Assembly: GCA_040876835.1 (NCBI GenBank)
Contig: JBBDOX010000011.1
Location: 1,452-65,451, forward strand
Reading direction: 5' to 3'
DNA: 64,000 bases
Source of the DNA: Candidatus Anderseniibacteriota bacterium
Lineage (GTDB): Bacteria; Patescibacteriota; Andersenbacteria; UBA10190
Shown here: one piece after another, positions 5,651 to 25,445 of the stretch
How the letters are laid out: each line of letters starts with the position of its first letter
Numbering within the stretch: the stretch's first letter is position 1
Notes under the pieces: model-generated
The model's database searches: none
Seen by the model: the letters and a program-made list of their open reading frames with translations, nothing else
What the model was told of the DNA's origin: nothing
Made by a program: the position numbers and the translations under genes

Positions 5651-5694
5651 GTGGTAGCGTTTTAGATTAGCCTTCGGTAGAGTAAGGGGTTGCT

Positions 5695-6561: not shown

Positions 6562-6688
6562 TGATTGCCCCGTACACTTTTACCTACATGGCTAATGAAT
6601 TTCAAAAAGATATCTGGAAAATCGGCATACTAGCTGGAACAGCTGTGATACTGATGATGCTCTTGCTTGTTGCTACATTTATATTTCG

Positions 6689-7225: not shown

Positions 7226-7253
7226 AAATCTTGATGGGCTATACTTTAAGATA

Positions 7254-7802: not shown

Positions 7803-7851
7803 GAAAAAAGCAGCCGAGAGGGCCGCTGTTAAGGAGGGGGCAACGCTGAGG

Positions 7852-8538: not shown

Positions 8539-8703
8539 CGTGAAATCCTCGCTGTTTGGGGAAAAGAAGATTGCCGAAAGAGCCGCAATATTGTTACAAT
8601 AAATTGATACTTAGTCAAGAGATGCCGGTTCTCCCGGGGCGTACATGCTCTAAATTCGAACTAAAAGCTGCATCAGGCCTCCGAGGCTGGTATACTGGCT
8701 TTT

Positions 8704-10473
8704 ATGAGTAGTGAAACTGAGCAGATTAAAGACCGACTGGAGATTGCCCAGATCGTGGGCGAATATGTGGTGTTAAAGCCGGCCGGCCGCAGCTTAAAAG
8801 GCCTGTGTCCGTTTCACAACGAGAAGACGCCGTCTTTTACCGTGAGTCCTGACCGAGGCACCTGGCACTGCTTTGGTGCCTGTGGCGAGGGGGGAGATAT
8901 TTTTACCTTTATCCAAAAAGCCGAAGGGCTGGATTTTCCGGCAACATTGAAGCTGCTGGCTGAACGGGCGGGAGTACAACTCAAAGCTGGCTCGCCTCAA
9001 AGCACTAATCACCGTCAGCGGTTATTCGATGTCCTCTCCGCCAGCGCCCGATTTTATCACCAGATTTTAATGACTCAGCAGGCCGGCCGTAAAGCTCGGG
9101 AGTATTTACTGGAGCGCGGTGTGACGAGGGAGACGATGGAGCTGTTCCAGATCGGGTACGCACCTGATTCGTGGGACGTGCTTCAGCAGTGGCTACGCAA
9201 GCACGGGTTTTCCGATCAGGAAATGATTCAGTCAGGGGCGGTAGGTAAAAGCCAGCGGGGCAAACAATATGACCGGTTCCGCGGCCGGATCATTTTTCCG
9301 GTCCAGGATACTCAAGGACGGGTGGTAGCATTCGGCGGCCGTATTGTTCCGTGGCTGGCAACGGGCGAGGAAGGTAAATATATTAACTCTCCTGAAGGGC
9401 CACTGTATGAAAAGCGGCGTGTTGTCTACAACTTGAACCGGGCCAAGCAGGCGCTGCGTCAGAATGCTCCCTGTATTGTGGTGGAGGGGTATATGGATAC
9501 GGCCCTGTTAGTTCAGGCAGGGGTGCAGAACGTCGTGGCTACATCAGGGACAGCTTTTACCGAAGAGCATATTACGCAACTGGCGCGCTTTACTAAAACC
9601 CTCCACTTTGCCTTTGACGGGGATGCGGCCGGCTGGAAGGCAACTGTTTCTGCAACCCAGGCGGCGTTAGCAGCCGGTATGACGGTTGCGACTATCCAAC
9701 TGCCGGCAGGACAGGATCCGGCAGATGTAGTGGTGAAGATGCCGGACAAAGTTCAGGAAACGATGACCCATACAGAATCCCTGATGGCAGTGTTGCTGAC
9801 TCAGCTGAAAGGTAGTTCCAATACAACTGACCGTCAGCAGCAGCTGGAGGCCGTATTGCCACTAGTGCGCATGGTAAAAAATCCCATTCAGCAAGGGCGG
9901 ATGATTCAGGAGATTGCGGACAGTCTTCACGTGCCTGAAACCCGCGTTATTGACCTGATTGAATCCACCCCGGCCTCTCATATCGCGGCTATCCAGTCTT
10001 CTCAAGAGGTAATGACGATGAGTGAAGGAGGGTCCAGCAGCCTGGTGGAGCGGCAAGTGTTGGGACTGCTTCTAGTAGACACTACAGTAAGGGCGGACTT
10101 TTTCCCGTATATGGAGGCAGAATTTTTCCTTGACTCACCCGCCGTTGCGTTATATAACTCAATGCAACGAATCGCTGAAGAAAATGCAAAATTTGACTCC
10201 CTGTCTGCGAATGAGCTGGTGGGCCTGTTGCCCCCGGAATTACTCTCGTATGCGGAAGGAGTGCGGTCATCTGGGGAGGAGCTGTTAAGCACAACTAGCT
10301 TAACTGCTTCCCAAGAAGGACGTCAGCTTTTGCGTTCACTTCAGCATCGTTCACTGCGAAGTCGCTTGCAGCAGCTGCAGACCCGTTTGCAGCAAAGCGG
10401 AGAGAATGAACGAGCAGATGCGCTTCAGGAATTCCGCGGTTTAACGGAAGAGCTGGCGCAGATCGACTCCTAA
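8704..10473 (+). CDS. dnaG: DNA primase
   Basis: 589 aa. CHC2 zinc finger [11 protein letters not shown]…HCFGCGEGGD. Toprim region (…VVEGYMD…FDGDAAG…). Confidence 0.92.
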
Positions 10474-11833: not shown

Positions 11834-12523
11834 ATGAATACCAATGTTGCAATCGGCACGATTGCCGTTATCGTTATTATTGGCGGACTATTCTATATCA
11901 GCCGCCTGACCAAGTCGGGGACGCAGTACGTCCCGTACTCCACGGACACGTTCGAGTCTTCAGACACTTCAACCCTTAATGAGCAACCCTCTACAACTCC
12001 TATGACATCAAATGCCAACATTGAACCGGTAAACAGTCAGATACGAGCAACGTTGAAGACGAATAAAGGAGATATTGCTGTAATGCTTGACGGCACGAAG
12101 GCACCCGTAACTGTCGGTAACTTCGTCCAGTTAGCGCGGGCGGATTTCTACGACGGTACGACATTTCACCGGATCATTCCTGATTTTATGATCCAGGGTG
12201 GCGATCCATATTCGAAAGACCCAGCTAAGCAGGCTGTAGTGGGCAGTGGAGATCCCGGCTATAAATTTGAAGACGAAATAAACAGTCGCAAGCTGGTGCG
12301 GGGCTCCCTGGCTATGGCCAACAGCGGTCCTAACACTAACGGCAGCCAGTTCTTTATCGTAACCACGGAAGCCACCCCCTGGCTGGATGGACTGCATACG
12401 AATTTTGGAGAGGTTGTTTCCGGGATGGAAGTCGTTGACGCTATCTCCGCCGTTCAAACGGGAGTCGGGGACAGACCTGTTGAGCCTGTTGTAATAGATG
12501 ATGTTATACTAGAGAGCATATGA
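11834..12523 (+). CDS. Cyclophilin-type peptidyl-prolyl cis-trans isomerase with N-terminal membrane anchor
   Basis: 229 aa. …FHRIIPDFMIQGGDP…GSLAMANSGPNTNGSQFFIVT… cyclophilin signature. N-terminal hydrophobic helix. Confidence 0.85.
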   Translation: MNTNVAIGTIAVIVIIGGLFYISRLTKSGTQYVPYSTDTFESSDTSTLNEQPSTTPMTSNANIEPVNSQIRATLKTNKGDIAVMLDGTKAPVTVGNFVQLARADFYDGTTFHRIIPDFMIQGGDPYSKDPAKQAVVGSGDPGYKFEDEINSRKLVRGSLAMANSGPNTNGSQFFIVTTEATPWLDGLHTNFGEVVSGMEVVDAISAVQTGVGDRPVEPVVIDDVILESI

Positions 12524-12639
12524 ACTTCGGTACACAAATTATCGTAAGCGCGGTTGTAATCGTTGTATTAGTGATTGCCATCGCAACATTCGGGCACTTC
12601 TTCGGAGAGCAGCTTAAGGCAGCGATCCCGTTTTTCTAG
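12520..12639 (+). CDS. Possible 39-aa single-helix membrane peptide
   Basis: ATG overlaps the cyclophilin stop (ATATGA). MNFGTQIIVSAVVIVVLVIAIATFGHFFGEQLKAAIPFF. Below the ORF-track size cutoff. Unverified. Confidence 0.25.
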   Translation: MNFGTQIIVSAVVIVVLVIAIATFGHFFGEQLKAAIPFF

Positions 12640-12648
12640 GGGCTACTC

Positions 12649-12680
12649 TGTCAGGTGCGCTGACAATATCTGATTGTCAG
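12649..12680. promoter_or_regulatory. Cluster of TGTCAG/CTGACA inverted repeats including a perfect 8-bp-arm palindrome CTGACAAT-ATC-TGATTGTCAG
   Basis: Read directly from the sequence at the end of the dnaG-rpoD-PPIase operon. No U-run follows. Could be an operator or an RNA hairpin. Confidence 0.3.
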
Positions 12681-13030
12681 TTGTGCTGAATATCATACAG
12701 TGGTGATACTGCAGACGTCACAGGTAGCAAAAGTGTCCACGCGGTGGGCTCTTAGCTTTACTCGTAGTTCTTTATCTGGGAGGAATCTGGTTGAGGTTTT
12801 TGGAAAACTAGGTAGGCAGCCGCTTACTTCCTGGATCGAATATGTTGTATATGAAATACCGCTGTGGTTATATTCGGCGGTATTTCATGTATATGGCTTG
12901 CAAAACAAGGCCTGGTCCTGCAAAATCACTTCGTACCTCTTATACATACGGAGGGTGTTCCTTACTTTGAAACAAGGCCCAGTAATGGGCCTTTATTCCC
13001 GGGTAGCTCAATGGCAGAGCAACTGGCTGT

Positions 13031-13578
13031 GACATGTTCGTATTTAGTCTGCTAAAATATAAAGTATGATTGAAAAGCGAACATATGCCGACCGTCGCGA
13101 GCAAAACATCAAGGCTGTAGCTAAGCGTCGAAGAAAGCTAAAAGCAATGGTGATTGAGTATAAAGGCGGTAAGTGTATGATTTGTGGCTATACTCGTAGT
13201 GCGGCAGCATTAGAGCTTCATCATGTTAATCCCAAGGAAAAATCATTTAGTCTCTCCAAAAGAGGGCTGACGAGATCTTGGGAAAAGACAAAAGCTGAAG
13301 CTGATAAGTGTGTGCTAATCTGCTCGAATTGTCACAAAGAAGTACATGCAGGTGTAACGCAGCTTCCGCAAGTAATTGCGGTCGAATAACTGGGTGAATT
13401 CGGGGAAGCCTTAACTGGTAATCCCGAGCCAAGCCGAAGAGGGTATATAAGTTCTTCGGAAGGTGTAGAGACTAGGAAGTGAGTCCCAACAATATTCTTC
13501 CAGATAGCGCCCAGTACCCTTATATGTTGTAAGGGTGATGATATAGTCCATGCCGGCACGAAAGTGTTGGGTTACATG
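13031..13578 (+). mobile_element. Group I intron (548 nt) in the tRNA-Asn anticodon loop, carrying an HNH homing endonuclease ORF
   Basis: The 5' exon ends in U and the intron ends in G (omega-G). An R-like element GAGACUA (13468-13474) and an S-like element GAUAUAGUCC (13540-13549) can pair as P7 (GACUA/UAGUC). ORF 13066-13389 sits in a peripheral loop. Confidence 0.7.
13066..13389 (+). CDS. HNH homing endonuclease (intron-encoded)
   Basis: 107 aa. CMICG…LELHHVNPKEK…CSNCHKEVH is an HNH/zinc-finger nuclease motif. Basic N-terminus. Confidence 0.75.
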   Translation: MIEKRTYADRREQNIKAVAKRRRKLKAMVIEYKGGKCMICGYTRSAAALELHHVNPKEKSFSLSKRGLTRSWEKTKAEADKCVLICSNCHKEVHAGVTQLPQVIAVE

Positions 13579-13674
13579 TAACCAGTAGGTTGTCGGTTCG
13601 AGTCCGACCCCGGGAGCAAGTTTGTACGTTCGGTTATTATGGTGTTTACGTATTGATTGCTATAAATTGATTGC

Positions 13675-14175
13675 ATGGCTAACAATATCGCTTTTATTGA
13701 TGGACAGAATTTGCATATGGGAACGACTATGTCAGATAGACCATGGCGCGTGGATTTATCAAGATTTAAAATATACTTGCAGCAGAAGTACAATGTGAAA
13801 GAAGCGTACTACTTTCTAGGATTTACTCAGGACAGCCACCAAGACCTATATGATTCCATTCAAAAAGCTGGGTTTATTTTACAGTTTCGAGAACACAGTT
13901 CAGCTATGTTAGGAAAGAAGAAAGGCAACGTCGATACCGACATCGTGTTTTCAATAATGAAGAAGCTGTATCAGCAAGAAGACTTTGAAAAGGTTGTCTT
14001 AGTATCTGGTGATGGAGATTATAGAATGATGGTTGATTTTTTGATTGATGAGAACCGTTTGAGGAAGATATTATTTCCAGAACAAAGGCGAGCTTCGTCT
14101 CTGTATAAAAAGATTGATCTGAAATATAGGGCTGACTTGAGCGCTCAGGACGTGCGAAGAAAAATTGGACGATAA
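13675..14175 (+). CDS. NYN-domain (LabA-like, PIN-related) protein
   Basis: 166 aa. FIDGQNL…NVDTDIV…VLVSGDGDY matches the NYN/COG1432 acidic-residue pattern. Confidence 0.68.
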   Translation: MANNIAFIDGQNLHMGTTMSDRPWRVDLSRFKIYLQQKYNVKEAYYFLGFTQDSHQDLYDSIQKAGFILQFREHSSAMLGKKKGNVDTDIVFSIMKKLYQQEDFEKVVLVSGDGDYRMMVDFLIDENRLRKILFPEQRRASSLYKKIDLKYRADLSAQDVRRKIGR

Positions 14176-14291
14176 ATAAAGAAAAGGGCTCCTTAGGTAA
14201 TTAGCCGTTCGGATCCCTTTTCGTCGTGATAGCTACAGCATACACAAGTGTCATACATTGTCAATAACAAAAAAGAGTAATAAAGATACAA

Positions 14292-14414
14292 TCAATAAAC
14301 TAAATCTGCCGTTGTTTACCCTGAGCACAGTCGAAGGGTGCAGCTAGGTCTGGGACATAAATATAGTCTTTTTGCCTCTGGAAAATAGTTCTAACGTCGT
14401 CTACGATTCGGAGC
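14292..14414 (+). repeat. REP-like intergenic repeat, family R1 copy a; tandem degenerate second unit at 14481-14530
   Basis: About 100 nt similar to 21522-21620. Includes an identical 37-mer CTGGAAAATAGTTCTAACGTCGTCTACGATTCGGAGC at 14378-14414. A degenerate unit with palindromic core CTGGTTCGAAACCCGG follows at 14481. Confidence 0.7.
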
Positions 14415-14693
14415 CAAGTCGATTTTATTGCCGCAACTGTGGCCTGATTGCCTTCTACAAGGCAAAAATCGCCAAAATTCGCTGGTTCGAAACCCGGTAA
14501 AATGGCCTTAACATCATCTACGGGTGGGCCTTACACTACCACTAGAAATTTTGTTGACCGGCGTTCTTACGTTCGCCATAGTGTTTGCCTGATTGATCTT
14601 AATTAGGGGAGGGGAAGCTTGACCATGAATCTGGTGTGGGTATACTTAATGTATTGCTTAATATATTAAGTAAGTGATACCCTGATATTACCT

Positions 14694-15008
14694 ATGCTAA
14701 CCAAGAAGGATATACAAGCCGTGCGTGAGGCGATCATTGTTGATGATGAACAGTGGCCGCTAATGTTTAATGCCCTCGCTGACGTGGGCCGGTTTCGCAT
14801 CTTTAAACTATTACTAAAGCAACCGGAAGTGTGTGTGACTGATGTGGCCAATGTGTTGCAAATCTCTCTGCCAGCGGCTTCCCAGCAACTGCGGATTATG
14901 GAGCATGCGGGCTTAGTGAAAAAAGAGCGAATGGGTCAGATGATGTGCTACAGACTCTGTAATGACGATCTGCTTGTGAAATCAATTATTAAGATTACTA
15001 AAAAGTAG
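14694..15008 (+). CDS. ArsR/SmtB-family metalloregulatory HTH repressor
   Basis: 104 aa. …RFRIFKLLLKQPEVCVTDVANVLQISLPAASQQLRIMEHAGLV… is a winged-HTH ArsR signature. First gene of a co-directional nine-gene cluster. Confidence 0.75.
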   Translation: MLTKKDIQAVREAIIVDDEQWPLMFNALADVGRFRIFKLLLKQPEVCVTDVANVLQISLPAASQQLRIMEHAGLVKKERMGQMMCYRLCNDDLLVKSIIKITKK

Positions 15009-15015
15009 CAGATAT

Positions 15016-16029
15016 ATGAAGCAGCCGGCTACCATCATTCTTATCATCGTTTTAGCAGTAGTCGTTGCCGGGGGAGCCCGGTGGTGGCAGAGCAGATCAT
15101 TCAATCTGCCGTGGGGAGGAGAAGGCGTAACCGAAACAATTATGGTAGATAACCAAGAAAAAGAAATTATGGTAACAGACGGAGTTAAGCACAGTGTCCC
15201 TCTTGAGGAGATACGGACTGGGTGTCCGGGGCGAGATTGTATTCCGTCCATTGATAATCCGCAGTTTGAATCTGTTGAGCAGGCAGCCACGTGGCTTAAC
15301 GGTGATGATATTGGTCTGGCACTGGACTTGCGTGGCGTCAAACGGTTCTATCCCTTTCGTATTCTTGTCTCGCACGAGATTGTCAATGACACTATAGGCA
15401 GTCAGCGCGTCCTTGTGTCGTATTGTCCGCTATGTTTTACGGCTATTGTATTTGATCCCCTCGTCGAAGGTGAGCGGGTAGAGTTTGGCGTGTCCGGCAA
15501 ACTGTGGAATTCCAATCTGCTTATGTATGACCGCAAAACGGAGGATACCTTGTGGTCGCAGGTGCAGGGCGAAGCGGTAGTGGGGCCGTTAACCGGCACA
15601 ACATTACCCATTCTGCCTTCTGATGTGTCTAAGTTCGGTGCCTGGAGCGGCACTAATCCTGATGGCGAGGTGCTGTCCCGGGATACCGGCCGCTCGTTTG
15701 TTTCGTATGACAGCGTTCCCTATGGTGGCGATCTCACTAACATTGAGCCGTTCTTTCCCTACTCAAACAAAGACAGCCGTCTTGAGGCGACGGATATCGT
15801 GGCCGGGATCATTATTGGAGATGTACCGAAAGCATATTTGATGACAGCTGTGCAAGAGGCGGGATCATTTACCGAGACGGTAGGCGGAGTGTCTCTGCGA
15901 GTTGAATATGTTAAAGGAGAAGATGCAATCAGGGTGTTCAATGCCGATACCAATGAACGCATTCCTACGATTCCAGCTTTCTGGTTCTCGTGGGTGTCAA
16001 CTCATCCTGAGACAGAATTGTACGAATGA
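15016..16029 (+). CDS. DUF3179-family protein with N-terminal membrane anchor
   Basis: 337 aa. Cys-containing motifs CPGRDCIPSIDNP and YCPLCFTAIVFD. Resembles the uncharacterised DUF3179 family. Confidence 0.55.
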   Translation: MKQPATIILIIVLAVVVAGGARWWQSRSFNLPWGGEGVTETIMVDNQEKEIMVTDGVKHSVPLEEIRTGCPGRDCIPSIDNPQFESVEQAATWLNGDDIGLALDLRGVKRFYPFRILVSHEIVNDTIGSQRVLVSYCPLCFTAIVFDPLVEGERVEFGVSGKLWNSNLLMYDRKTEDTLWSQVQGEAVVGPLTGTTLPILPSDVSKFGAWSGTNPDGEVLSRDTGRSFVSYDSVPYGGDLTNIEPFFPYSNKDSRLEATDIVAGIIIGDVPKAYLMTAVQEAGSFTETVGGVSLRVEYVKGEDAIRVFNADTNERIPTIPAFWFSWVSTHPETELYE

Positions 16030-16667
16030 TTATGAATACAAAAATCATTACCGCAGGCCTTGGTGCAGCGGCGCTCATTGGAGCAGTTATATTTTTTACT
16101 CGTTCTCCACAAGCCGCTCAAGAGACAAACGTAGTCCTGTCTGCTGAACAGACGGGCGGTGTGGAATCAGGAGGCTGTCCGATTAGCAGCACGGGGCAGT
16201 GTGAGGCAGATGGCGGACACCAGACACCTACTGCCTCAACCGGTTCAACCGCGATGGTCTCTGAAAGTGTCGGCGATCACGATTTCACACTGGAAAAACT
16301 TGGCGGCGGGACGATTACGTTGGCAGAGTATCGCAGTCAAAAACCGGTCATTGTCGACTTCTGGGCATCTTGGTGTCCGAACTGCCGGCGGGACATGCCA
16401 AAAGTAAACGAGTGGTACCAACAGTACCGTGATCAGGTGGAAGTTATTGGTGTTAACCTCCAGGAGAGCTCGAAGACGGTTCAGCAGTTTGTTGACAGTA
16501 ATGACATAGTTTTTCCGATTGCGCTTGACCCAGCCGGGGTTGCATCGGCTCAATTCGGAATCCAGTTTACAAATACCCATCTTCTATTCAACAAATCTGG
16601 TGAGCTCGTCCGCGTGATTCCCGGCGATATTAAAGAGGAGGATATTGTATCCTTAATAGAATCGTAA
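16026..16667 (+). CDS. TlpA/ResA-like thiol:disulfide oxidoreductase (thioredoxin fold), membrane-anchored
   Basis: 213 aa. WASWCPNCRRDMP CxxC active site. N-terminal hydrophobic helix. ATG overlaps the upstream stop. Confidence 0.75.
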   Translation: MIMNTKIITAGLGAAALIGAVIFFTRSPQAAQETNVVLSAEQTGGVESGGCPISSTGQCEADGGHQTPTASTGSTAMVSESVGDHDFTLEKLGGGTITLAEYRSQKPVIVDFWASWCPNCRRDMPKVNEWYQQYRDQVEVIGVNLQESSKTVQQFVDSNDIVFPIALDPAGVASAQFGIQFTNTHLLFNKSGELVRVIPGDIKEEDIVSLIES

Positions 16668-16670
16668 ACC

Positions 16671-17201
16671 ATGCAGTCGAAGACCACACTATCGATCGCC
16701 GCCGCCGTTGTCACTATTGTGGCGGGAGCAGTGTGGCTTAGTGCGCAAAATATGAGTCAGGAAGAAGTCAACGAACCCTCGAGTGCGCAACTACCTAGTG
16801 TTTCTTTGACAGATTATGAGGGTAATGAAGTGAACGTAGCTGACTTTTTTGGTAAACCAATCGTTGTTAACTCGTGGGCCGTTTGGTGCCCGTTTTGTGT
16901 GAAAGAATTGCCGGATTTTGTGACGGTCCAGAAAGAATTTGAAAATCAGGTTACCTTTATTGCCATTGACCGCGCCGAACCGCGTGACGTGGCTAAAGAG
17001 TTTACTGATGGCTTAGGCATTACTGATGACTTAGTATTCTTGCTCGATCCAAGAGACTCTTTTTACCAAGCCATTGGAGGTTTTTCTATGCCGGAGACGT
17101 TGTTCGTGAACACTGACGGGGAAGTGGTATTTCACAAGCGCGGCCCGATGCCGCTTGAAGAAATCCGGCAACGGACGCAAGCGTTACTTCAGCAGCAATA
17201 A
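16671..17201 (+). CDS. Second TlpA-like redoxin
   Basis: 176 aa. WAVWCPFCVKELPD CxxC site. N-terminal anchor. Confidence 0.75.
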   Translation: MQSKTTLSIAAAVVTIVAGAVWLSAQNMSQEEVNEPSSAQLPSVSLTDYEGNEVNVADFFGKPIVVNSWAVWCPFCVKELPDFVTVQKEFENQVTFIAIDRAEPRDVAKEFTDGLGITDDLVFLLDPRDSFYQAIGGFSMPETLFVNTDGEVVFHKRGPMPLEEIRQRTQALLQQQ

Positions 17202-17205
17202 ATCT

Positions 17206-17967
17206 ATGATAGATGTTTCTTTGATTATCCCCTCGTTTATAGCCGGCGTACTCACATTCTTGGCGCCCTGCACGCTGCCGTTGGTGCCTGGCTATTTAGG
17301 ATTTATCAGCGGCGTGTCGCTTGATGATTTGCGTGATCCGGTGAAAGCTCCGGGCATTCGTCGTCGAATTCTCTTAAACGGTCTGTTGTATGTTATCGGT
17401 TTTAGCGTTGTCTTTATTATTCTCGGATCATTAGTCGGTTTTGCCGGAGCTTTACTGGGGCAGTATCGTTTGTGGCTGACTCGTATTGGCGGGGTGCTGG
17501 TGATCTTCTTCGGGCTTTACATGATGCGGATTATCAAGCTACCGGCCTCAATGAGCGCGGAAAAACACTTCATTCCCGTGCGCTGGCTTAAACCCGGACA
17601 TCCAACGAGTTCTTTTCTGTTTGGCGTGGCCTTTGCCGCCGGGTGGACTCCGTGCGTAGGCCCCATACTCGCCTCTATCCTGGCGTTAGCGGCGGCGACA
17701 ACCACTCTGTGGCAAGGCGCGTTTTTACTGACTATTTTCTCACTCGGCCTGGCAGTGCCGTTTTTGGTCATCGCTGCCGGTATCGGGTCGGTCGCCCCGC
17801 GGCTCACTAAGCTGGAGAAGTATCTCAATTGGGTATCAATTGTCGGCGGGATATTCCTGGTCTTTGTCGGTATCTTGCTTCTAACCAATCGCTTGGCGGT
17901 CTGGATTGGCTACTCGTACCAGTGGCTGGAATTTCTTAACTATGACCGGTTACTCGAATACCTATGA
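17206..17967 (+). CDS. ccdA: Cytochrome c-type biogenesis / thiol-disulfide transporter CcdA (DsbD membrane core)
   Basis: ATG at 17206, 4 nt after the redoxin stop. …LAPCTLPLVPGY… and …WTPCVGPILASIL… are the two conserved Cys-containing TM motifs. The upstream in-frame extension of the ORF track is rejected. Confidence 0.78.
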   Translation: MIDVSLIIPSFIAGVLTFLAPCTLPLVPGYLGFISGVSLDDLRDPVKAPGIRRRILLNGLLYVIGFSVVFIILGSLVGFAGALLGQYRLWLTRIGGVLVIFFGLYMMRIIKLPASMSAEKHFIPVRWLKPGHPTSSFLFGVAFAAGWTPCVGPILASILALAAATTTLWQGAFLLTIFSLGLAVPFLVIAAGIGSVAPRLTKLEKYLNWVSIVGGIFLVFVGILLLTNRLAVWIGYSYQWLEFLNYDRLLEYL

Positions 17968-18347
17968 AGTATCAACTTGCCAGGAAAGAACTTTTTAAGA
18001 TAACCTGGTTCCCGGTGCTGATAGCATCGTTATGCTGTTTTGCTCCCGTTATTCTGGTGCTGTTTGGTTTGAGCACCGTTGCGTTTGCGGCGTCACTTTC
18101 CGATTTTCTCTACGGTCAATACAAATGGTGGTTTCGCTTGGTTGGTCTATTGCTGCTGGCTGCTTCACTCGTGGTCTACCTGCGTCGCTCAAAAGGTATT
18201 TGCACCATTAATCAAGCCAAACAAAGGCGCAATGAAATCATTAACTTAGCCTTCATAGTCTTAAGCGTCAGTGTGGTTGGGTATATCCTATGGTTATATG
18301 TCATTGTTGAACTTATTGGCCATCTCCTGGGTATTTGGGGAGTATAG
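17964..18347 (+). CDS. Small polytopic membrane protein with CC motif in TM1 (MerT-like)
   Basis: 127 aa. …ASLCCFAPVILVLFGL…YLRRSKGIC… resembles the MerT-superfamily architecture (vicinal Cys pair in the first helix). Assignment is tentative. Confidence 0.4.
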   Translation: MKYQLARKELFKITWFPVLIASLCCFAPVILVLFGLSTVAFAASLSDFLYGQYKWWFRLVGLLLLAASLVVYLRRSKGICTINQAKQRRNEIINLAFIVLSVSVVGYILWLYVIVELIGHLLGIWGV

Positions 18348-18350
18348 TCT

Positions 18351-18812
18351 ATGAACGCTCATCCTGATCACAAGCCACTCGATTACGATTACATTACTGA
18401 TGGTATCTACATTGGCACAAATGTCTGTTGCCAAGTTCATTTTGATGAACGCCTCGCCAAGGAAGGCATAGAGGCAGACATATCTTTGGAAGCAGACCGC
18501 GTGGATGCACCATTTGGTGTGGAGTTTTATTTGTGGCTGCCAGTGGTTGATCATACGGCACCAACACCGGAACAGGTAGAAACTGGTATTCAGATGCTAG
18601 AAACGCTGATGAAATTAGGCAAGAAAGTATACGTCCATTGCAAGAATGGGCATGGCCGGGCACCGACACTAATAGCTGCGTATCTGGTTAAACAAGGTAA
18701 GTCGGTGGATGAGGCAATTGCTTTTTTGCAGACGAAGCGGTCAGCCGTTCACCTTCGCGATATTCAGGAAAAAGCTTTAAGAGCATGTCGACAATCACTA
18801 ACAGTCTCTTAA
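18351..18812 (+). CDS. Dual-specificity / tyrosine-phosphatase-fold protein (CX5R)
   Basis: 153 aa. VHCKNGHGRAPT is the HCxxGxxR(S/T) P-loop of the PTP/DSP fold. Confidence 0.7.
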   Translation: MNAHPDHKPLDYDYITDGIYIGTNVCCQVHFDERLAKEGIEADISLEADRVDAPFGVEFYLWLPVVDHTAPTPEQVETGIQMLETLMKLGKKVYVHCKNGHGRAPTLIAAYLVKQGKSVDEAIAFLQTKRSAVHLRDIQEKALRACRQSLTVS

Positions 18813-18815
18813 GTT

Positions 18816-18998
18816 ATGGCAAGGAGTGTACAACAAGACGATTCAAGTCAGTTTCAATGTGAGGAGTGTGGTTTTATATACCGCGAAAGGCAGTGGGCGG
18901 AGAAATGCGAGGCGTGGTGCAAAGAGCACCAAAGCTGCAATCTCGAAATAATCCAGCATGGGGTTCCTGGCAAAGAAGGAGGTGATAGTCATGGATAA
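18816..18998 (+). CDS. Small CxxC…C…C zinc-ribbon-like protein
   Basis: 60 aa. QCEECGFIY…CEAWCKEHQSC. Directly follows the phosphatase. Confidence 0.4.
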   Translation: MARSVQQDDSSQFQCEECGFIYRERQWAEKCEAWCKEHQSCNLEIIQHGVPGKEGGDSHG

Positions 18999-19152
18999 GT
19001 GTTTAAAGTGTAGTATGGATTCGGAGGGATACAAGTGCGACGCGTGCGGGGCAGAGTCGAAGGAGCACGATGATAACCATGCGTGCGGGAGCGATCACTG
19101 CATGCCCAAATGCAAGGGATGTGGTCAAGCCCAAGTAAAATGTCCTTGCTAA
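18991..19152 (+). CDS. Cysteine-rich (12 Cys in 53 aa) metallothionein-like metal-binding peptide
   Basis: An AGGAGG RBS sits 8 nt before ATG 18991. MDKCLKCSMDSEGYKCDACG…HACGSDHCMPKCKGCGQAQVKCPC. The ORF-track entry starts earlier at 18958. Confidence 0.5.
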   Translation: MDKCLKCSMDSEGYKCDACGAESKEHDDNHACGSDHCMPKCKGCGQAQVKCPC

Positions 19153-19242
19153 TAACCTTTCGCAGCTGTAACAAAAACCGCTCGGTGGCCGATATTTCTT
19201 CCTTTTTATGCTTTTTATGTATTTTTAGTTTATTATGTAGGT

Positions 19243-20496
19243 ATGAATAAAAATATAATTGTTTCTGCTCTTTTTCTTCTCATCGGCGGTCTTGTAGGCG
19301 TAGGCGCATATGCCACTTCGACCGGTACCCGAGTGCCGAGTGATCGCATCCCCGGCCAGTATGTTGTTGTTCTCAAAGACACAACAACAAACCCAAATGA
19401 AGTTGCGAACAAGGTTGCTAAAGAATACGGCTTGGGCTTGCAGCAGGTATATGAGCACGCCCTGAAAGGATTTGCGGCGACTATTCCCGATGCCAGACTG
19501 GATAATGTAAAAAATGACAGTCGGGTGTTGTTTGTGAGTGAGGATAAAGTCGTGACGACATTTGCCAAACCTTCAGCTCCCAGTTCTTCAGCTAGCCAGA
19601 CCCTGCCAACTGGTGTTGACCGGATTAATGCGGAGAATAAAGCGAACAAAGGCACAGGCGTGAACGTAGCGGTGATTGATACTGGCATTGATCTAAAACA
19701 CCCTGACCTTAAAGCGAATATTGTGGGTGGTAAGAATTGCTCAACCGGCCGAAGCTATACTGACGGCAACGGGCACGGCACGCATGTGGCCGGAACGATT
19801 GCGGCGCTGAATAACAGCACGGGTGTAGTCGGCGTGGCGCCAGAAGCTAAGTTATGGGCGGTGCGGGTTTTGGATAATAGTGGCAGTGGATCATGGTCTT
19901 CAGTCATCTGCGGTATTGATTTTGTGACGAGCAAGGCGGGAACTATCAAAGTAGCCAATATGAGTCTCGGTGGCAGTGGGGGTAGTGATAACAATTGTGG
20001 GTTCACAAATAAGGATGCGTTACATAAAGCGATCTGCAATTCCCGGAATGCGGGTGTAACGTATGTGGTGGCGGCCGGTAACAGTGCGGCGGATGCCAGC
20101 AAATTTGTTCCGGCAGCGTATGACGATGCGGTCATTACTGTTTCCGCTTTGGCTGATTCTAATGGTCAACCGGGTGGCGGCGGAGCCGCAACCAGTTATG
20201 GTGTCGATGACACCTTTGCCAGTTTCAGCAATTACGGCAACGTGGTTGATCTGGGTGCACCTGGTGTGAATATTCTCTCCACATGGAAAGGTGGCGGCTA
20301 CAATACGATTAGTGGCACTAGTATGGCCACACCGCATGTGACCGGATCAGCGGCATTGTATATTGCTGCGCATCCCGGTTCGACTTGGGCACAAGTACAC
20401 GATGGCCTGAAAGCAATTGGTGAACTGACTGGCTTTGGGCACACAGATCCGTCCGGCAACCACCCCGAAGCGGTTGTTCGGGCTGATGCACTCTAA
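19243..20496 (+). CDS. Secreted subtilisin-like serine protease (S8) with I9 propeptide
   Basis: 417 aa. Signal peptide. Catalytic-triad motifs VAVIDTGID, HGTHVAGTIAA and GTSMATPHVTG. Confidence 0.88.
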   Translation: MNKNIIVSALFLLIGGLVGVGAYATSTGTRVPSDRIPGQYVVVLKDTTTNPNEVANKVAKEYGLGLQQVYEHALKGFAATIPDARLDNVKNDSRVLFVSEDKVVTTFAKPSAPSSSASQTLPTGVDRINAENKANKGTGVNVAVIDTGIDLKHPDLKANIVGGKNCSTGRSYTDGNGHGTHVAGTIAALNNSTGVVGVAPEAKLWAVRVLDNSGSGSWSSVICGIDFVTSKAGTIKVANMSLGGSGGSDNNCGFTNKDALHKAICNSRNAGVTYVVAAGNSAADASKFVPAAYDDAVITVSALADSNGQPGGGGAATSYGVDDTFASFSNYGNVVDLGAPGVNILSTWKGGGYNTISGTSMATPHVTGSAALYIAAHPGSTWAQVHDGLKAIGELTGFGHTDPSGNHPEAVVRADAL

Positions 20497-20504
20497 CTCT
20501 ACAC

Positions 20505-20804
20505 ATGGAAACACCTCTACCGCCTCGTAAATCAAAGAAGGGTAAGTTAGTCGGCGTACTTATCATTATAGTATTGGTCGTTGGTGTTGCTGCCTATTTC
20601 TACGTGCGACATGTTTTCACCCGCCTCAACCAAGCCGAACAAGTTATTGCCGACGCCCAAGCCTACCAGATCACGAGCGATGCTCTGCAAACCGAGCACG
20701 CTCGGTGTCAGGATTTTATTGTCCAGCGCCGCGGCGATTTTGGAGACTTTGAGTACTGCAAAGCATTTATTAATTGGGTGGCAAGCAATCAATTGCTGCC
20801 CTAG
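20505..20804 (+). CDS. Hypothetical membrane-anchored protein
   Basis: 99 aa with an N-terminal TM helix. No recognisable domain. Confidence 0.4.
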   Translation: METPLPPRKSKKGKLVGVLIIIVLVVGVAAYFYVRHVFTRLNQAEQVIADAQAYQITSDALQTEHARCQDFIVQRRGDFGDFEYCKAFINWVASNQLLP

Positions 20805-20852
20805 TACGCAATTATTAATGGGGTCAGCCACCATTAATTCTTCAGCTCCCTT

Positions 20853-20885
20853 ATTCTGGTTCGGAAGACGTCCTGGTCTGCGAGC
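20853..20885 (+). repeat. REP-like repeat family R2 copy a
   Basis: ATTCTGGTTCGGAAGACGTCCTGGTCTGCGAGC is identical to 23080-23112. Confidence 0.7.
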
Positions 20886-20966
20886 TCGTAAAAATATAGC
20901 TTAATTAAGCAGTTGAACATTAGACAAGAGCAGGACGCTAGAACCACTAACATTTATTATTACTAA

Positions 20967-21533
20967 ATGGAGAGTGAGCCCAAATTGATAATCATTACAG
21001 GTCGTCCAGGTTCAGGAAAAACAACCCTAGCTAAGAAGCTTGGAGAGTCTCTATTTATGCCTGTGGTTGTTCGGGATGAAATAAAAGAGGGTTACATTAA
21101 CACATTCAATACGAGTCACAATAATCTTCCGGATGAGACAAATGGCAAAGTAACAAGGATATTTTTTGAAAATGTTGATTTTCTTTTATCTCGCAATGTC
21201 TCATTGGTTGCAGAAGCTGCCTTCCAGCATCATGTTTGGGAGCCACAGATTGCCAAATGGAAGGAAACTGCAAATATATTCTTCATTATTTGTGAAATTG
21301 ATGCCGACGTGGCTGCTGAGCGTCATATAAAGAGGGGCGTAGAAGAACCTAAGCGAGAGCTATATCACGGAGACAACAAGGTGGTTCACTTCAAAAAGAC
21401 GGGGGAAGTATTGCCGGCGGGTGAATATACGCCACCTTCCCTTGATGTGCCGACTTTGAAAGTCTCAACCCTAGATGGCTACGCCCCGTCATTAGAAGAA
21501 ATTGAAAAACAAATTACTGAGTCAATAAACTAA
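20967..21533 (+). CDS. P-loop NTPase / putative small-molecule or nucleotide kinase (AAA_33/zeta-like)
   Basis: 188 aa. Walker A GRPGSGKTTLAKKL near the N-terminus. No other diagnostic motif. Confidence 0.5.
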   Translation: MESEPKLIIITGRPGSGKTTLAKKLGESLFMPVVVRDEIKEGYINTFNTSHNNLPDETNGKVTRIFFENVDFLLSRNVSLVAEAAFQHHVWEPQIAKWKETANIFFIICEIDADVAAERHIKRGVEEPKRELYHGDNKVVHFKKTGEVLPAGEYTPPSLDVPTLKVSTLDGYAPSLEEIEKQITESIN

Positions 21534-21620
21534 ATTTGCCCTCGTGGGCGCAGGTCTGGAATATAAACATATTCTTTCTGCATCTGGAAAATAGTTCTAA
21601 CGTCGTCTACGATTCGGAGC
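21522..21620 (+). repeat. REP-like repeat family R1 copy b
   Basis: Begins inside the last codons of the preceding CDS (TCAATAAACTAA). Includes the identical 37-mer at 21584-21620. Confidence 0.7.
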
Positions 21621-21674: not shown

Positions 21675-22496
21675 ATGGATGCAAAAGACATGCAGTTCGC
21701 AGACTCGATACCGAAGAATTATGATCGGTACCTTGGACCTCTCTTATTTACGTTCACAAGTGCTGACACCGCGCGGCGGGTCGCAGCGATCGGTCTTAAA
21801 ACCGGAAAGGTGCTTGAGATCGCTGCCGGGACGGGCATTACAACCGAACATATGCGAAATGCCTTACCAGAGTCGGTACATATTGTCGCGACGGACATTT
21901 CAGAGGCAATGCTCGTGTTTGCAAGACAGAAGCGAGGCCATTTACAGAATGTTGCCTGGGAGGCCGCTGACGCGATGGATCTTCTGTATGAAGACAATAG
22001 TTTTGATGCCGTGGTTTGTCAGTTCGGGATCATGTTTTTTCCTGATAAAGAAAAAGGCCTTGTTGAGATGCTACGCGTCCTGAAACCAGGAGGGACGCTC
22101 ATTATTAATGTTTGGGATTCACAAGATAAGAATCGTGTTGTAAGGCTCTGCGGTGAGATAATAGCGTCATTTTTTGAAACAGAGCCGCCGACATTTCTTA
22201 AGATCCCGTTTGGGTTCTATGATGTCGATGCGATCACCACAATGATAGAGGACGCCGGATTTGACGAAGTTACATCTGAATATGTTTCAGAAACATTCAC
22301 CACTATTCCGGCATCCGACATCGCACGCGGCATGGTCATGGGAAATCCAACCATTGGAGAGTTACAAAAACGAGGAACTACTGGTATCGATACTGTGGTC
22401 AATGCGATCACTGAGGCTATTGAAGACGAATTTGGGAAAAACACACCGACATTCTCAATACAAGAAATAGTTTTTACCGCAAAGAAACCTTTTTAG
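21675..22496 (+). CDS. Class I SAM-dependent methyltransferase
   Basis: 273 aa. VLEIAAGTGITTE (motif I) and …LKPGGTLII… (post-II). Confidence 0.75.
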   Translation: MDAKDMQFADSIPKNYDRYLGPLLFTFTSADTARRVAAIGLKTGKVLEIAAGTGITTEHMRNALPESVHIVATDISEAMLVFARQKRGHLQNVAWEAADAMDLLYEDNSFDAVVCQFGIMFFPDKEKGLVEMLRVLKPGGTLIINVWDSQDKNRVVRLCGEIIASFFETEPPTFLKIPFGFYDVDAITTMIEDAGFDEVTSEYVSETFTTIPASDIARGMVMGNPTIGELQKRGTTGIDTVVNAITEAIEDEFGKNTPTFSIQEIVFTAKKPF

Positions 22497-23033: not shown

Positions 23034-23079
23034 CTTTCCTTGTCCCTGCTTTGACCAGATATGCTTTTGATACTGCCGG

Positions 23080-23112
23080 ATTCTGGTTCGGAAGACGTCC
23101 TGGTCTGCGAGC
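23080..23112 (+). repeat. REP-like repeat family R2 copy b, plus an inverted related element at 23152-23182
   Basis: Identical 33-mer to 20853-20885. The reverse complement of 23152-23182 reads GCCTACCTCTGGTTCGAAACTCCGACTTGG, related to R1 and unit 2. Confidence 0.65.
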
Positions 23113-23239
23113 AGTAATTTTAACCGCTCAATACAGCGATATAATTTTCGACCCAAGTCGGAGTTTCGAACCAGAGGTAGGCAATTAATAACTTCGCTTG
23201 ATTATCTCTTTATCTCTTTATATATTCGTAGTAGCGAAT

Positions 23240-23752
23240 ATGTATCAAGAGGTGTTCCAACTTCACGCTGATCTCCTTAAAGCCTTGGCCCAACCACGCC
23301 GTCTTGAGATTATCAACTTGCTTCAAAATCAAGAGCTGTCAGTGACTGAGATGCAGGAGATGTTGGCTTTACCCCAGGCTAACCTAAGCCAGCACTTGCA
23401 GGTGTTACGCAAGCAAGGAGTGGTTATTGATCGACGAGATGGCAAACAGATATTTTATCGGTTAGCACACAAGAACTTTCTCAAAGCCAATCATCTTTTG
23501 CGCGATGTGTTGATTAAACGGCACGAGAAAACACCATTAGCAAAAGTTATGAATAAAGAGGTGGCTCAACTACTACCCGTCGTTATCGACCCCGTCTGTG
23601 GTATGCGGGTGAGTAAAAAAACTGCAGCCGCTTCTCACCCACACAAAGGAAGTCGCTTTTATTTCTGCGCTAGGGGGTGTTTGAATAAATTTAAGAAGTC
23701 CCCTCAAGTATATTCCTTAACAACAAAAACTCATGAACACACCGCACCGTAA
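23240..23752 (+). CDS. ArsR-family HTH regulator fused to a C-terminal YHS/TRASH-type metal-binding domain (putative copper sensor)
   Basis: ATG at 23240; the ORF-track start is TTG 23198. HTH …LSVTEMQEMLALPQANLSQHLQVLRKQGVV…. C-terminal DPVCGMRV…FYFCARGC is a YHS-like motif. Confidence 0.68.
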   Translation: MYQEVFQLHADLLKALAQPRRLEIINLLQNQELSVTEMQEMLALPQANLSQHLQVLRKQGVVIDRRDGKQIFYRLAHKNFLKANHLLRDVLIKRHEKTPLAKVMNKEVAQLLPVVIDPVCGMRVSKKTAAASHPHKGSRFYFCARGCLNKFKKSPQVYSLTTKTHEHTAP

Positions 23753-25427
23753 CAAGTATCTTGGCATCATCGTTGTTATCGCCCTACTTATTGGCGCCGG
23801 TTGGTTAGCGGGCAGATATCAGAATGGTGGCGATCAACGCACTAGATCACAGCAAGTTTTGAAATTCTTTTCATCTGAAACAACGGGATTAACCGATGCT
23901 GTGCCTATGCCAATCGTTGAGCTGAAAGACGGTGATACCTACGACCTCACAGCGCAGCAAGTTAAGAAAAGTATCAACGGGCAGGATGTGAAAATGCTCG
24001 CCTACAACGGCTCTGTTCCCGGGCCGCTGATTAAAGTGCCGCAAGGAGCGGAGATCACTGTTAACTTCACCAACAACACGGATGTGGAAACCACCCTACA
24101 TTCTCACGGCGTACGGGTTGATAACGCATTCGATGGTATCCCAGGCATAACCCAAGACCCCATTCCCGTCGGCGGGTCTTTTACCTATCGCCTCAAATTC
24201 CCCGATGCTGGTATGTACTGGTATCACCCGCATATCCGAGAAGACTATGCCCAAGAGCTGGGACTGTACGGTAATTTCTTAGTTGAACCGAAAGATACTG
24301 CGTTGTGGTCGCCGGTTAATCGTGAAGTACCCCTGGTGCTCGATGACATTTTAATTGAGAATGGCCGGATCGCAGCTTTTGCGGAAAATGATGCCAGTCA
24401 TACCCTTATGGGTCGCTTTGGTAATACGATGCTGATAAATGGCGAAACCAGTGCAAGCCTTATTGCCAATCCAGGAGAAGTTGTCCGTTTCTTTATCACT
24501 AACACCGCCAACACCCGCACTTTCAATTTTAGTATTCCGGGGGCACAAATGAAGCTCGTTGGTAGCGATGGCGGAATGTATGAGAAAGAAACATTTGTTG
24601 ATAGCGTTACCATTAGCCCATCGGAGAGAGCGACAGTAGACGTGCGATTCGCGAACGTCGGAACATACTCACTGCAACACGCCACACCTCAAAAAACGTA
24701 TCCGCTTGGCACTGTCATTGTAAGTGGTGAGGCAGTCTCTCCCTCATATGCATCCCAGTTTGCAACGACGCGAACCAATGCAATTGTGCAATCGGAAATG
24801 GATGAGTTGCGTCCTCTGCTAGCAAGGGTTGTTGATAAAAGTCTCAATATTGGCATCGACATGGAAATGATGAACATGATACAGGGTGGTGGCGGACACA
24901 TGATGTTCAACGGACTGCTTGGCAACGAAGCCTTAGCGCAAATGAGTAATCCCACAGCTGGTCACGGGCAGCACATGATGCCGGACGGTAGCATAATGAG
25001 TAACAATATGATGATGGGTGGCAATGATCCGATTGAGTGGGAAGATGATATGGTACCGATGAATATAAACTCCAACAAAGAGTCAGTTCAATGGAAGCTG
25101 ATCGATGAAGTGACTGGTAAAGCGAACATGGATATTGACTGGAAGTTTAAGGTCGGAGACAAAGTCAAAATTAGAATTACCAATGACGCTAATTCCATGC
25201 ATCCGATGCAACATCCCATTCATCTACACGGTCAGCGTTTTCTTGTCACCAGCACCAATGGTATAGCAAGTGGTAACCTAGTCTGGAAAGACACCGCGCT
25301 TATCAAAACTGGCGATACGGTTGAACTGCTGGTTGATATGACTAATCCAGGAGAGTGGATGCTGCACTGTCACATTGCTGAGCACTTGGAGGACGGCATG
25401 ATGCTGCCGTTTACCGTTAGCCCTTAG
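23733..25427 (+). CDS. Multicopper oxidase (CueO/laccase-like) with Met/His-rich insert
   Basis: 564 aa. Copper-ligand motifs HSHGVRV, WYHPH, HPIHLHGQRF and HCHIAEHLEDGMM. Met-rich segment MEMMNMIQGGGGHMMFN…HMMPDGSIMSNNMMMGG. Signal/TM helix at the N-terminus. Confidence 0.85.
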   Translation: MNTPHRNKYLGIIVVIALLIGAGWLAGRYQNGGDQRTRSQQVLKFFSSETTGLTDAVPMPIVELKDGDTYDLTAQQVKKSINGQDVKMLAYNGSVPGPLIKVPQGAEITVNFTNNTDVETTLHSHGVRVDNAFDGIPGITQDPIPVGGSFTYRLKFPDAGMYWYHPHIREDYAQELGLYGNFLVEPKDTALWSPVNREVPLVLDDILIENGRIAAFAENDASHTLMGRFGNTMLINGETSASLIANPGEVVRFFITNTANTRTFNFSIPGAQMKLVGSDGGMYEKETFVDSVTISPSERATVDVRFANVGTYSLQHATPQKTYPLGTVIVSGEAVSPSYASQFATTRTNAIVQSEMDELRPLLARVVDKSLNIGIDMEMMNMIQGGGGHMMFNGLLGNEALAQMSNPTAGHGQHMMPDGSIMSNNMMMGGNDPIEWEDDMVPMNINSNKESVQWKLIDEVTGKANMDIDWKFKVGDKVKIRITNDANSMHPMQHPIHLHGQRFLVTSTNGIASGNLVWKDTALIKTGDTVELLVDMTNPGEWMLHCHIAEHLEDGMMLPFTVSP

Positions 25428-25445
25428 TTTATTAATTGTTCTTTT

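Follow-up and report, generated by a model that had tools for sequence, protein, structure and literature searches.

What function unites an ArsR-type repressor, a DUF3179 protein, two thioredoxin-like proteins, CcdA and a MerT-like membrane protein in a single gene cluster? The question is raised by a locus of a Candidatus Anderseniibacteriota bacterium (Andersenbacteria, contig JBBDOX010000011.1). A stretch of 64,000 nucleotides of this contig was analysed and is referred to as the window. Nine open reading frames (ORFs), all on the + strand, occupy positions 14694–19152 of the window. The junctions between them measure +7, −4, +3, +4, −4, +3, +3 and −8 nt. The products of ORF2 (DUF3179) and ORF6 share 100% identity with NCBI proteins of an Andersenbacteria metagenome-assembled genome. 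A first-pass annotation had read this arrangement as one transcription unit that possibly serves thiol-based metal(loid) detoxification. The coordinates of the nine ORFs are confirmed and the tight architecture of a single unit is supported; the proposed function is considered below.

The operon is the Andersenbacteria version of an undescribed operon that is widespread in Patescibacteria (candidate phyla radiation, CPR). Its core is a machine of known type, the extracytoplasmic reducing pathway of CcdA and TlpA-like proteins. New are the proposed DUF3179 client and the accessory proteins. The evidence somewhat favours an ArsR-controlled chain in which reducing power passes from NADPH via thioredoxin reductase (TrxR), a small glutaredoxin (Grx), CcdA and TlpA to a surface-anchored DUF3179 protein. 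Such a chain would be a redox-repair system of the CPR cell surface. In a literature search no description was found of the operon, of the function of DUF3179 or of a link between MerT and methionine sulfoxide reductases (Msr).

Gene content and conservation of the operon

Family calls were made by Pfam and NCBIfam profile searches against the curated cutoffs. The earlier calls for ArsR, DUF3179, two redoxins, CcdA and a dual-specificity-phosphatase-fold protein (DSP) are borne out by scores above cutoff. The ArsR protein belongs to the winged-helix repressors, with matches to HTH_5 (PF01022, 38.5 bits, cutoff 22) and NF033788 (71 bits, cutoff 55). The DUF3179 protein matches its family over the full length of the profile (PF11376, 257.8 bits, cutoff 27, positions 1–292 of 292). 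CcdA matches the DsbD_TM family (PF02683, 68.3 bits, cutoff 27.1) and its membrane cysteines C22 and C150 are present in 44/44 orthologs. The start of CcdA is set to ATG 17206 according to the gene call in an identical public 6.5-kb contig; the mechanical ORF list gives TTG 17155. TlpA1 (AhpC-TSA 79.7 bits, Redoxin 69.4 bits) and TlpA2 (Redoxin 65.9 bits) each combine a thioredoxin fold, a WCxxC motif and an N-terminal membrane anchor. The CxxC motif is kept in 30/30 orthologs of TlpA1 and 49/49 orthologs of TlpA2. Neither protein belongs to the equivalogs ResA, StoA, TlpA or DsbE (e.g. 61 bits for the TlpA model, which requires 230 bits). These gene calls support the earlier view that a CcdA/TlpA extracytoplasmic reducing pathway is joined to uncharacterised proteins with cysteine motifs. 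It also holds that the composition matches no canonical mer, ars or scs operon.

Table 1. Coordinates of the operon, its putative control region and the metal-related genes of the window
Feature	Position	Strand	Basis
Promoter-like site TTGACC-16 nt-TATACT	14619–14646	+	10/12 sigma-70-like match, top score in 13500–21000
Inverted repeat TACTTAATGTATT / AATATATTAAGTA, core palindrome CTTAATATATTAAG	14643–14672	.	candidate ArsR operator over the −10
ArsR/SmtB-family repressor, 104 aa	14694–15008	+	HTH_5, NF033788
DUF3179 protein, 337 aa, N-terminal membrane anchor and all-beta ectodomain	15016–16029	+	PF11376
TlpA/ResA-like thioredoxin 1 (TlpA1), membrane-anchored, WCPNC	16026–16667	+	AhpC-TSA, Redoxin
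TlpA/ResA-like thioredoxin 2 (TlpA2), membrane-anchored, WCPFC	16671–17201	+	Redoxin
CcdA (DsbD transmembrane-domain family), 253 aa	17206–17967	+	DsbD_TM
ORF6, divergent MerT-family CC-membrane protein with three transmembrane helices, E-type	17964–18347	+	weak MerT match, CC motif
DSP-fold CX5R protein, cytoplasmic	18351–18812	+	DSPc
ORF8, DUF7128-like small cytoplasmic protein, Cys5 + His	18816–18998	+	PF23447 just under cutoff
ORF9, 53-aa Cys-rich peptide (13 Cys)	18991–19152	+	ATG after Shine-Dalgarno sequence; no family match
LMW-phosphatase/ArsC-like protein, CX5R loop, C8 and C83	22632–23033		best matches arsenate reductase models, all under cutoff
Copper-resistance cluster: ArsR-YHS fusion regulator, multicopper oxidase, Cu P1B-type ATPase (TIGR01511, 574 bits)	23198–27590	+	profile match

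Conservation was assessed in two independent anchored scans. Homologs of ORF6 led to 80 loci in species-representative genomes of many CPR phyla and of DPANN archaea. Homologs of DUF3179 led to 80 metagenome loci, and the 53 loci that are 5 kb or longer were used for the counts. The ORFs of all loci, which are numbered L###, were searched by phmmer with the window proteins. The genes most often found co-directional with DUF3179 encode ArsR (38/53 loci, 72%), the TlpA2-type redoxin (38/53, 72%), Grx (36/53, 68%) and CcdA (32/53, 60%). The TlpA1-type redoxin is present in 22/53 loci, and TlpA2 is thus the TlpA copy that most often accompanies DUF3179. The DUF7128 peptide (15/53), the DSP (14/53), the CC-membrane protein (12/53) and TrxR (12/53) are accessories, each present in 23–28% of the loci. 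A DsbA-like gene (10/53), an FMN reductase gene (7/53) and an ORF9-like gene (3/53) are less frequent. Where the flanks measure 3.5 kb or more on each side (28 loci), CcdA is present in 22/28 and TlpA in 25/28. The order of the genes is variable and their content is kept, a classic pattern of functionally coupled genes. The arrangement goes far beyond what chance would produce, because dozens of independent CPR contigs carry the same gene set in one direction and in differing order. The first-pass annotation had made its proposal depend on the co-occurrence of these genes in other genomes. The recurrence across the 53 DUF3179-anchored loci strongly confirms it in this respect.

The Grx is of the YruB type (TIGR02196, 91.3 bits, cutoff 88.55) and carries a CxxC motif. 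The TrxR is a thioredoxin-reductase-like protein, with a score of 296 bits under the cutoff of 343. The cysteines conserved in the module are precisely the ones that a thiol relay would require.

CcdA and ResA/TlpA-like proteins also constitute the thiol-reduction arm of System II-type cytochrome c maturation, in which CcdA and a ResA-like redoxin reduce the haem-binding cysteines of apocytochromes. The ResA subfamily is indeed the top NCBIfam match of both redoxins. However, the scores (100.3 bits for TlpA1 and 69 bits for TlpA2) are far under the cutoff of 170. Genes for ResB/ResC (CcsBA) or cytochromes c are present neither among the 292 scanned genes that flank the ORF6 homologs nor in the module loci. 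In DUF3179 proteins of the CPR the CPLC motif is followed by L or F and does not form a CxxCH motif. To our knowledge, CPR bacteria possess no respiratory chains. A function in cytochrome c maturation is extremely improbable and was ruled out because no neighbourhood contains CcsBA or cytochrome genes.

The DUF3179 protein and its proposed reducing chain

DUF3179, TlpA1 and TlpA2 each begin with one hydrophobic helix. The ectodomain of DUF3179 has a Rieske-like beta fold and lacks a thioredoxin fold. The invariant motif is H120...Y-C137-P-L-C140, and H59, D74, D80, E121, N124 and D125 are also invariant. The fold resembles that of Rieske [2Fe-2S] ferredoxins (T4moC, 1vm9; NDO ferredoxin, 2qpz; NirD-like protein, 3c0d), with a sequence identity of about 10%. 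Sequence-profile searches of the PDB gave no matches for DUF3179 or for the CC-membrane family. Ligand-like residues occupy three of the four ligand positions of the Rieske proteins, but the residue types are swapped. Furthermore, the domain is duplicated in DUF3179 and set in a larger membrane-anchored ectodomain. Variants of DUF3179 with selenocysteine or a CxxT motif argue for redox catalysis.

DUF3179 is listed among the prokaryotic selenoprotein families with the motif UxxC/T (PMC9312934, PMC13188914). A haloarchaeal paralog has C-P-L-T at the site of C-P-L-C. Plasmid genes for DUF3179 that are annotated as '(seleno)protein' encode cysteine forms and contain no in-frame TGA; among these sequences the CPLT variant alone is informative on the position of the selenocysteine. 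Because of the UxxC/T selenoprotein forms and the CPLT variant, C137 is taken as the indispensable nucleophile and the second cysteine as replaceable. Such a pattern is characteristic of a catalytic redox site rather than of a structural metal site. Most likely, DUF3179 is a thiol(selenol)-dependent reductase or peroxidase-type enzyme with a Rieske-like beta fold. In cultured organisms outside the CPR, DUF3179 is found among genes for thioredoxin, DsrE, TauE, low-molecular-weight (LMW) phosphatase, peroxidase and chromate efflux. The window protein has an additional cysteine pair in residues 70–75 (C-P-G-R-D-C in place of the family consensus G-P-P-K-D-G), which forms a second, lineage-specific motif, CxxxxC.

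From gene content and motifs we infer the direction of electron flow and the identity of the client. In the cytoplasm, NADPH with TrxR and the YruB-type Grx would reduce CcdA; the genes of both proteins are missing from the window copy. CcdA would hand the electrons across the membrane to the two anchored TlpA-like thioredoxins. TlpA1 and TlpA2 would in turn keep the C-P-L-C site of the surface protein DUF3179, the signature client, in the reduced state. The CC-membrane protein, which is translationally coupled to CcdA, probably participates in membrane thiol exchange and not in Hg(II) import. This MerT-family protein, the atypical DSP, the DUF7128 peptide and the Cys-rich peptide would be accessory modules.

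The supply of a surface reductase by CcdA and an anchored thioredoxin is established for MsrAB (PMC3914529, PMC7034828, PMC9239216). The CcdA–Etrx–MsrAB systems of Streptococcus pneumoniae, S. gordonii and Fusobacterium nucleatum described there share with the present operon CcdA and anchored thioredoxin-fold proteins encoded in one operon. By analogy, electron delivery to a surface thiol-dependent reductase and a role in oxidative-stress defence may be shared as well and are proposed here. The present operon differs in that the client is DUF3179 instead of MsrAB, the regulator is of the ArsR type, and MerT-family, DSP and DUF7128 proteins are added. Many versions of the module also have their own Grx and TrxR. 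No Msr homologs are present in the 64-kb window, which sets the operon apart from MsrAB surface repair, and Msr occurs near DUF3179 in 2/53 loci.

A conceptual parallel is the Scs system of Salmonella, in which copper stress and oxidative stress of the envelope are connected by a reducing pathway. One of its components, ScsA, is a small membrane protein whose cysteine motif is buried in the membrane (PMC10907172). In composition, CcdA may be compared to ScsB, the TlpA-like proteins to ScsD, the DsbA-like protein of some versions to ScsC and the small membrane protein to ScsA. Like the Scs system, the present operon may be stress-induced and may link thiol stress with metal stress. In contrast to ScsB, CcdA has no periplasmic domains, and DUF3179, DSP and DUF7128 are without counterparts in ScsABCD. 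The regulator is a cytoplasmic ArsR instead of CpxRA, and the host is a CPR bacterium instead of an enterobacterium.

The parallel to ScsB, ScsC and ScsD (PMC10907172) would also suit a function in disulfide isomerisation and folding of secreted or surface proteins, such as pilins or the S8 protease, with DUF3179 and/or the DsbA-like protein as isomerase. The DsbA-like genes of the module loci and the secreted subtilase that follows the operon in the window are in line with this idea. However, DUF3179 does not have a thioredoxin fold and the window operon lacks a DsbA-like gene. The subtilase (S8 protease, 19243), which the first-pass annotation had mentioned as the next gene, never accompanies the module in other loci and is unrelated to it. 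A stress-type ArsR and a dedicated TrxR/Grx pair are more in keeping with an inducible defence than with housekeeping folding. A folding function is accordingly considered improbable.

The MerT-like membrane protein and the other accessory proteins

ORF6 has three transmembrane (TM) helices. The motif C24-C25-x-x-P28 in TM1 is invariant in 54 sequences, so that the vicinal cysteine pair noted earlier is a family feature. A single invariant cysteine, C80, is located in the strongly basic loop between TM2 and TM3, and Glu116 lies in TM3. The window copy is under the cutoffs of the MerT models (PF02411, 18.1 bits, cutoff 32.9; merT_RC607, 25.2 bits, cutoff 130) and is not a MerT equivalog. In the family, 53/54 members match Pfam MerT at E ≤ 0.01, with a best E-value of 5.9e-10. 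By these profile matches the family is classified as a divergent branch of the MerT superfamily. The earlier label 'MerT-like' is therefore valid at the level of the superfamily.

The likeness to MerT/MerP comprises a length of about 120 residues, three TM helices, the CC-x-x-P motif in TM1, a cysteine in the cytoplasmic TM2–TM3 loop and a collinear similarity to Pfam MerT over the full length. An external CxxC partner is encoded alongside in both cases, and MerA is adjacent in two related loci (2/80). ORF6 differs by one loop cysteine in place of the second MerT cysteine pair. The mer operon context is also missing: MerR, MerA and MerP, which has the HMA fold, are absent from the window. The main partners of the family are MsrAB or CcdA/TlpA/DUF3179. 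Sequence identity within the family is 57–88% across CPR phyla. Copies from Woesearchaeota and Pacearchaeota (DPANN loci L019, L020, L043, L053 and L059) are about 60–66% identical to those of the CPR, and this similarity suggests gene transfer between domains among ultra-small organisms.

When the 292 genes that flank the CC-membrane gene in the 80 loci were scanned with Pfam, SelR/MsrB (28 genes) and PMSR/MsrA (26 genes) were by far the most frequent families; DsbD_TM came next with 11 genes. In 39/80 CPR/DPANN loci a gene for MsrA or MsrB is located within about 100 nt of the CC-membrane gene, overlaps it or is fused to it. In-frame fusions of CC-membrane protein, MsrA and MsrB are present in L014 (10007–11272), L017 (9992–11314), L026 (10007–11284) and L027 (1134–2411). 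Nearly all of the separate Msr proteins have an N-terminal hydrophobic anchor of their own. As these proteins are already anchored, the CC-membrane partner is unlikely to be a mere anchor. In L012 (10007–11056, Saccharibacteria) the fusion partner of the CC-membrane protein is an alpha/beta-hydrolase domain instead of MsrAB.

Two subtypes can be distinguished by TM3. The H-type (V-H-Y) accounts for 29/32 of the Msr-adjacent copies, and the E-type (V-E-Y/L) for 18/19 of the copies beside CcdA/TlpA, including the window copy. The start of the E-type gene usually lies 4 nt into the stop codon of ccdA or directly after a TlpA gene. The 4-nt overlap with ccdA is found in the window and in L002, L094, L135 and L148. 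No CcdA or TlpA was seen within 10 kb in the H-type, Msr-linked loci (39/80). DUF3179 and an E-type copy with no CcdA/TlpA in view are found in L077, L035, L044, L150/153/155 and L156.

These partners suggest that the CC-membrane protein takes part in transmembrane thiol exchange and has a redox role rather than a role in mercury transport. A bolder reading is offered tentatively, as an idea with a limited chance of being correct. The MerT-fold CC proteins of CPR and DPANN could be unrecognised minimal transmembrane thiol-disulfide relays, the H-type feeding MsrAB and the E-type feeding DUF3179, a new Rieske-derived Cys/Sec surface reductase. Electrons would enter at Cys80 of the cytoplasmic loop and exit via the vicinal CC pair of TM1. 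The CC proteins would then be functional alternatives or adjuncts to CcdA/DsbD. The AlphaFold2 model of the CC-membrane protein (pLDDT 66, pTM 0.36) is too poor for a test of thiol exchange. A role as zinc supplier to MsrB was ruled out, since the CxxC zinc site is missing from the MsrB domains of the fusions. No matches to the CC-membrane protein, the DSP or DUF7128 were found by tblastn against plasmids.

The DSP (PF00782, 56 bits, cutoff 33.5) has the HCX5R(S/T) signature, and its P-loop HCKNGHGRAPT is invariant. Its closest solved structures are the atypical DSPs PTPMT1, DUSP23 and PRL. The vicinal cysteines C26 and C27 and the cysteine C97 are present in 28/28 orthologs. The general-acid position is occupied by Asp in 11/28 orthologs (Asp67 in the window copy) and by Asn in 17/28. 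In most loci the gene ends 3 nt before ccdA. With the thioredoxin-coupled arsenate reductases and the CX5R reductases of the Cdc25/Acr2 type the DSP shares the CX5R nucleophile, two extra invariant cysteines and Grx/TrxR neighbours. It differs in its fold (PTPMT1/PRL/DUSP23-like, not LMW-phosphatase or rhodanese) and in the missing arsenite pump. Speculatively, the protein is a poor fit to a conventional protein phosphatase and would be compatible with a reductase in a thiol cascade. An assignment of the CC pair to the back-door cysteines of PRL/PTEN was dropped; the alignment offsets disagree and the alignments with solved structures begin after the CC pair.

The two small Cys-rich proteins, which had been treated alike in the first reading, differ in status. 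ORF8 matches DUF7128 (PF23447) at profile positions 1–38 of 44 with 24.7 bits, just under the cutoff of 25.7, and recurs in the module. Its cysteines C15, C18, C31, C35 and C41, which are accompanied by H38, are kept in 31/31 orthologs. ORF9 is a genuine gene that does not belong to the core of the module. Its ATG at 18991 is preceded by a strong Shine-Dalgarno sequence, AAGGAGGTG, and two homologs of exactly 53 residues show 75–81% identity (L166, 3307–3468; L168, 3080–3241). The contexts of these homologs are unrelated: one is preceded by a DsbA-like gene and has a CsoR-Cu-ATPase pair at a distance of about 2 kb, and the other is a solitary gene flanked by genes for a glycosyltransferase and a DUF3800 protein. 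The composition of ORF9 is metallothionein-like and it matches no Pfam or NCBIfam family. No convincing terminator was found in the region downstream of ORF9.

Regulation, the metal question and the surroundings

An inverted repeat lies directly 5' of arsR and covers the −10 element of the promoter candidate. Sigma-70-like sites are not more numerous in the region than in shuffled sequences, and the promoter candidate is distinguished by its position only. The inverted repeat is kept upstream of arsR in the related genome L002, and a related repeat, TACTTAAG..TTGCTTAAT, is found in L006. Residues Cys47 and Cys85 of ArsR are invariant (43/43 orthologs). The palindrome at the promoter is probably the binding site of this two-cysteine ArsR, which would let go of it under thiol-reactive stress, caused by oxidants or soft metals. 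The nearest solved relatives of ArsR are CadC, CzrA and SmtB, and C47 aligns to the first cysteine of the CVC motif of CadC. A recognised sensing site is not present: the corresponding CVT keeps only the first cysteine, there is no His/Asp site in α5, and the C-terminal helix contains no histidine. ArsR may respond to a soft metal or to the oxidation of thiols.

The relatives of ArsR lead back to the metal question. As an alternative to the reducing chain that serves DUF3179, the operon could handle thiophilic metal(loid)s. DUF3179 would then be an extracellular, MerP-like captor of Hg(II), Cu(I) or As(III), and the MerT-like CC pair would import the metal. The Cys-rich peptides would sequester it, the CX5R/CC enzyme would reduce an oxyanion, TlpA/CcdA would keep the external thiols reduced and ArsR would sense the metal.

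Several points weigh against the chain with DUF3179 as client. The window operon contains no genes for Grx and TrxR; the 88%-identical relative L002 has a Grx gene (6812–7045) between arsR and DUF3179. A simple linear chain does not explain the DSP, DUF7128 and the CC-membrane protein. The H/C/C arrangement of DUF3179 could bind a metal instead. Further points of this kind speak directly for metal handling. The solved relatives of ArsR are metal sensors. A true MerA is encoded beside the DUF3179 and CC-membrane genes in L075 (10395–11798, − strand; TIGR02053, 515.8 bits, cutoff 454; GGTCVNVGC motif and C-terminal CC), and a close homolog of it lies beside the module in L007 (3124–4527, − strand). 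In the window, the copper trio and the ArsC-like gene follow about 3.5–8 kb downstream of the operon.

Metal handling is also in line with the genuine MerT-superfamily ancestry of the CC-membrane family, including CCxxP in TM1, with a MerC-like gene in L004 and with L003, another Andersenbacteria contig. In this contig the ArsR-YHS/multicopper oxidase/CopA trio (5550–10378) is located directly upstream of the CC-membrane gene. The metallothionein-like composition of ORF9, one homolog of which is near CsoR-CopA, and the three invariant cysteines of the DSP, as in thioredoxin-coupled ArsC, point in the same direction. The MerA-flanked modules of L075 and L007 belong to a Peregrinibacteria and a Magasanikbacteria genome.

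On the other hand, Pfam and NCBIfam searches of the nine ORFs detect no MerA, MerP, MerR, ArsB/Acr3 or efflux pump. None of the ORFs matches ArsC either, and a canonical ars operon is not present. Metal genes are found near the module in less than 10% of the loci, in contrast to 60–72% for the redox partners. A true MerA is nearby in 2/133 related loci and a Cu-ATPase (CopA) in 7/133. The window CC-membrane copy scores under the MerT cutoff and has one cysteine in the cytoplasmic loop instead of the MerT pair, and its sister subtype is paired with MsrAB and not with metal genes. ArsR lacks the canonical CVC site of α3 and the His/Asp site of α5. The CxxT and selenocysteine variants of DUF3179 favour catalysis over chelation. 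Metal(loid) detoxification as the primary function, as put forward in the first-pass annotation, is not upheld: the pump and the mer and ars proteins are missing and the constant partners are redox proteins. The detoxification reading is weakly supported and is regarded as unlikely.

Upstream of the operon, a group I intron (RF00028, 73 bits) is located at 13335–13570. The ORF of an HNH endonuclease (13066–13389) runs into the intron, and an ORF with a NYN domain (13675–14175) follows. An Rfam search of positions 12500–14700 found no host rRNA or tRNA gene for the intron. A direct repeat of about 130 nt with 88–91% identity (14292–14414 and 21522–21620) brackets the operon together with genes for the S8 protease, a small TM protein and an AAA kinase. 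The repeat was considered as a structured RNA and rejected (z = −0.28, no Rfam match); exact copies of its 27-nt core are absent from the other loci. A second pair of repeats, of 40 nt, is found at 20846–20885 and 23073–23112. A gene for an S-adenosylmethionine-dependent methyltransferase (21675–22496) precedes the LMW-phosphatase/ArsC-like gene.

The CPR or Patescibacteria represent a large and mostly uncultured share of bacterial diversity, with minimal genomes and no respiratory chain. The operon is kept in a large share of these organisms and is likely to be important at the cell surface, the site of host attachment. For DUF3179, a family with thousands of members and selenoprotein forms, a first functional context is given, as putative client of a dedicated CcdA/TlpA chain. 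A branch of the MerT family is linked to MsrAB and CcdA instead of mercury genes, which calls for caution when such proteins are annotated as mercury transporters in metagenomes. If it is true that MerT-fold proteins carry electrons across the membrane, they would be a third and much smaller solution to this task besides the DsbD/CcdA-type proteins.

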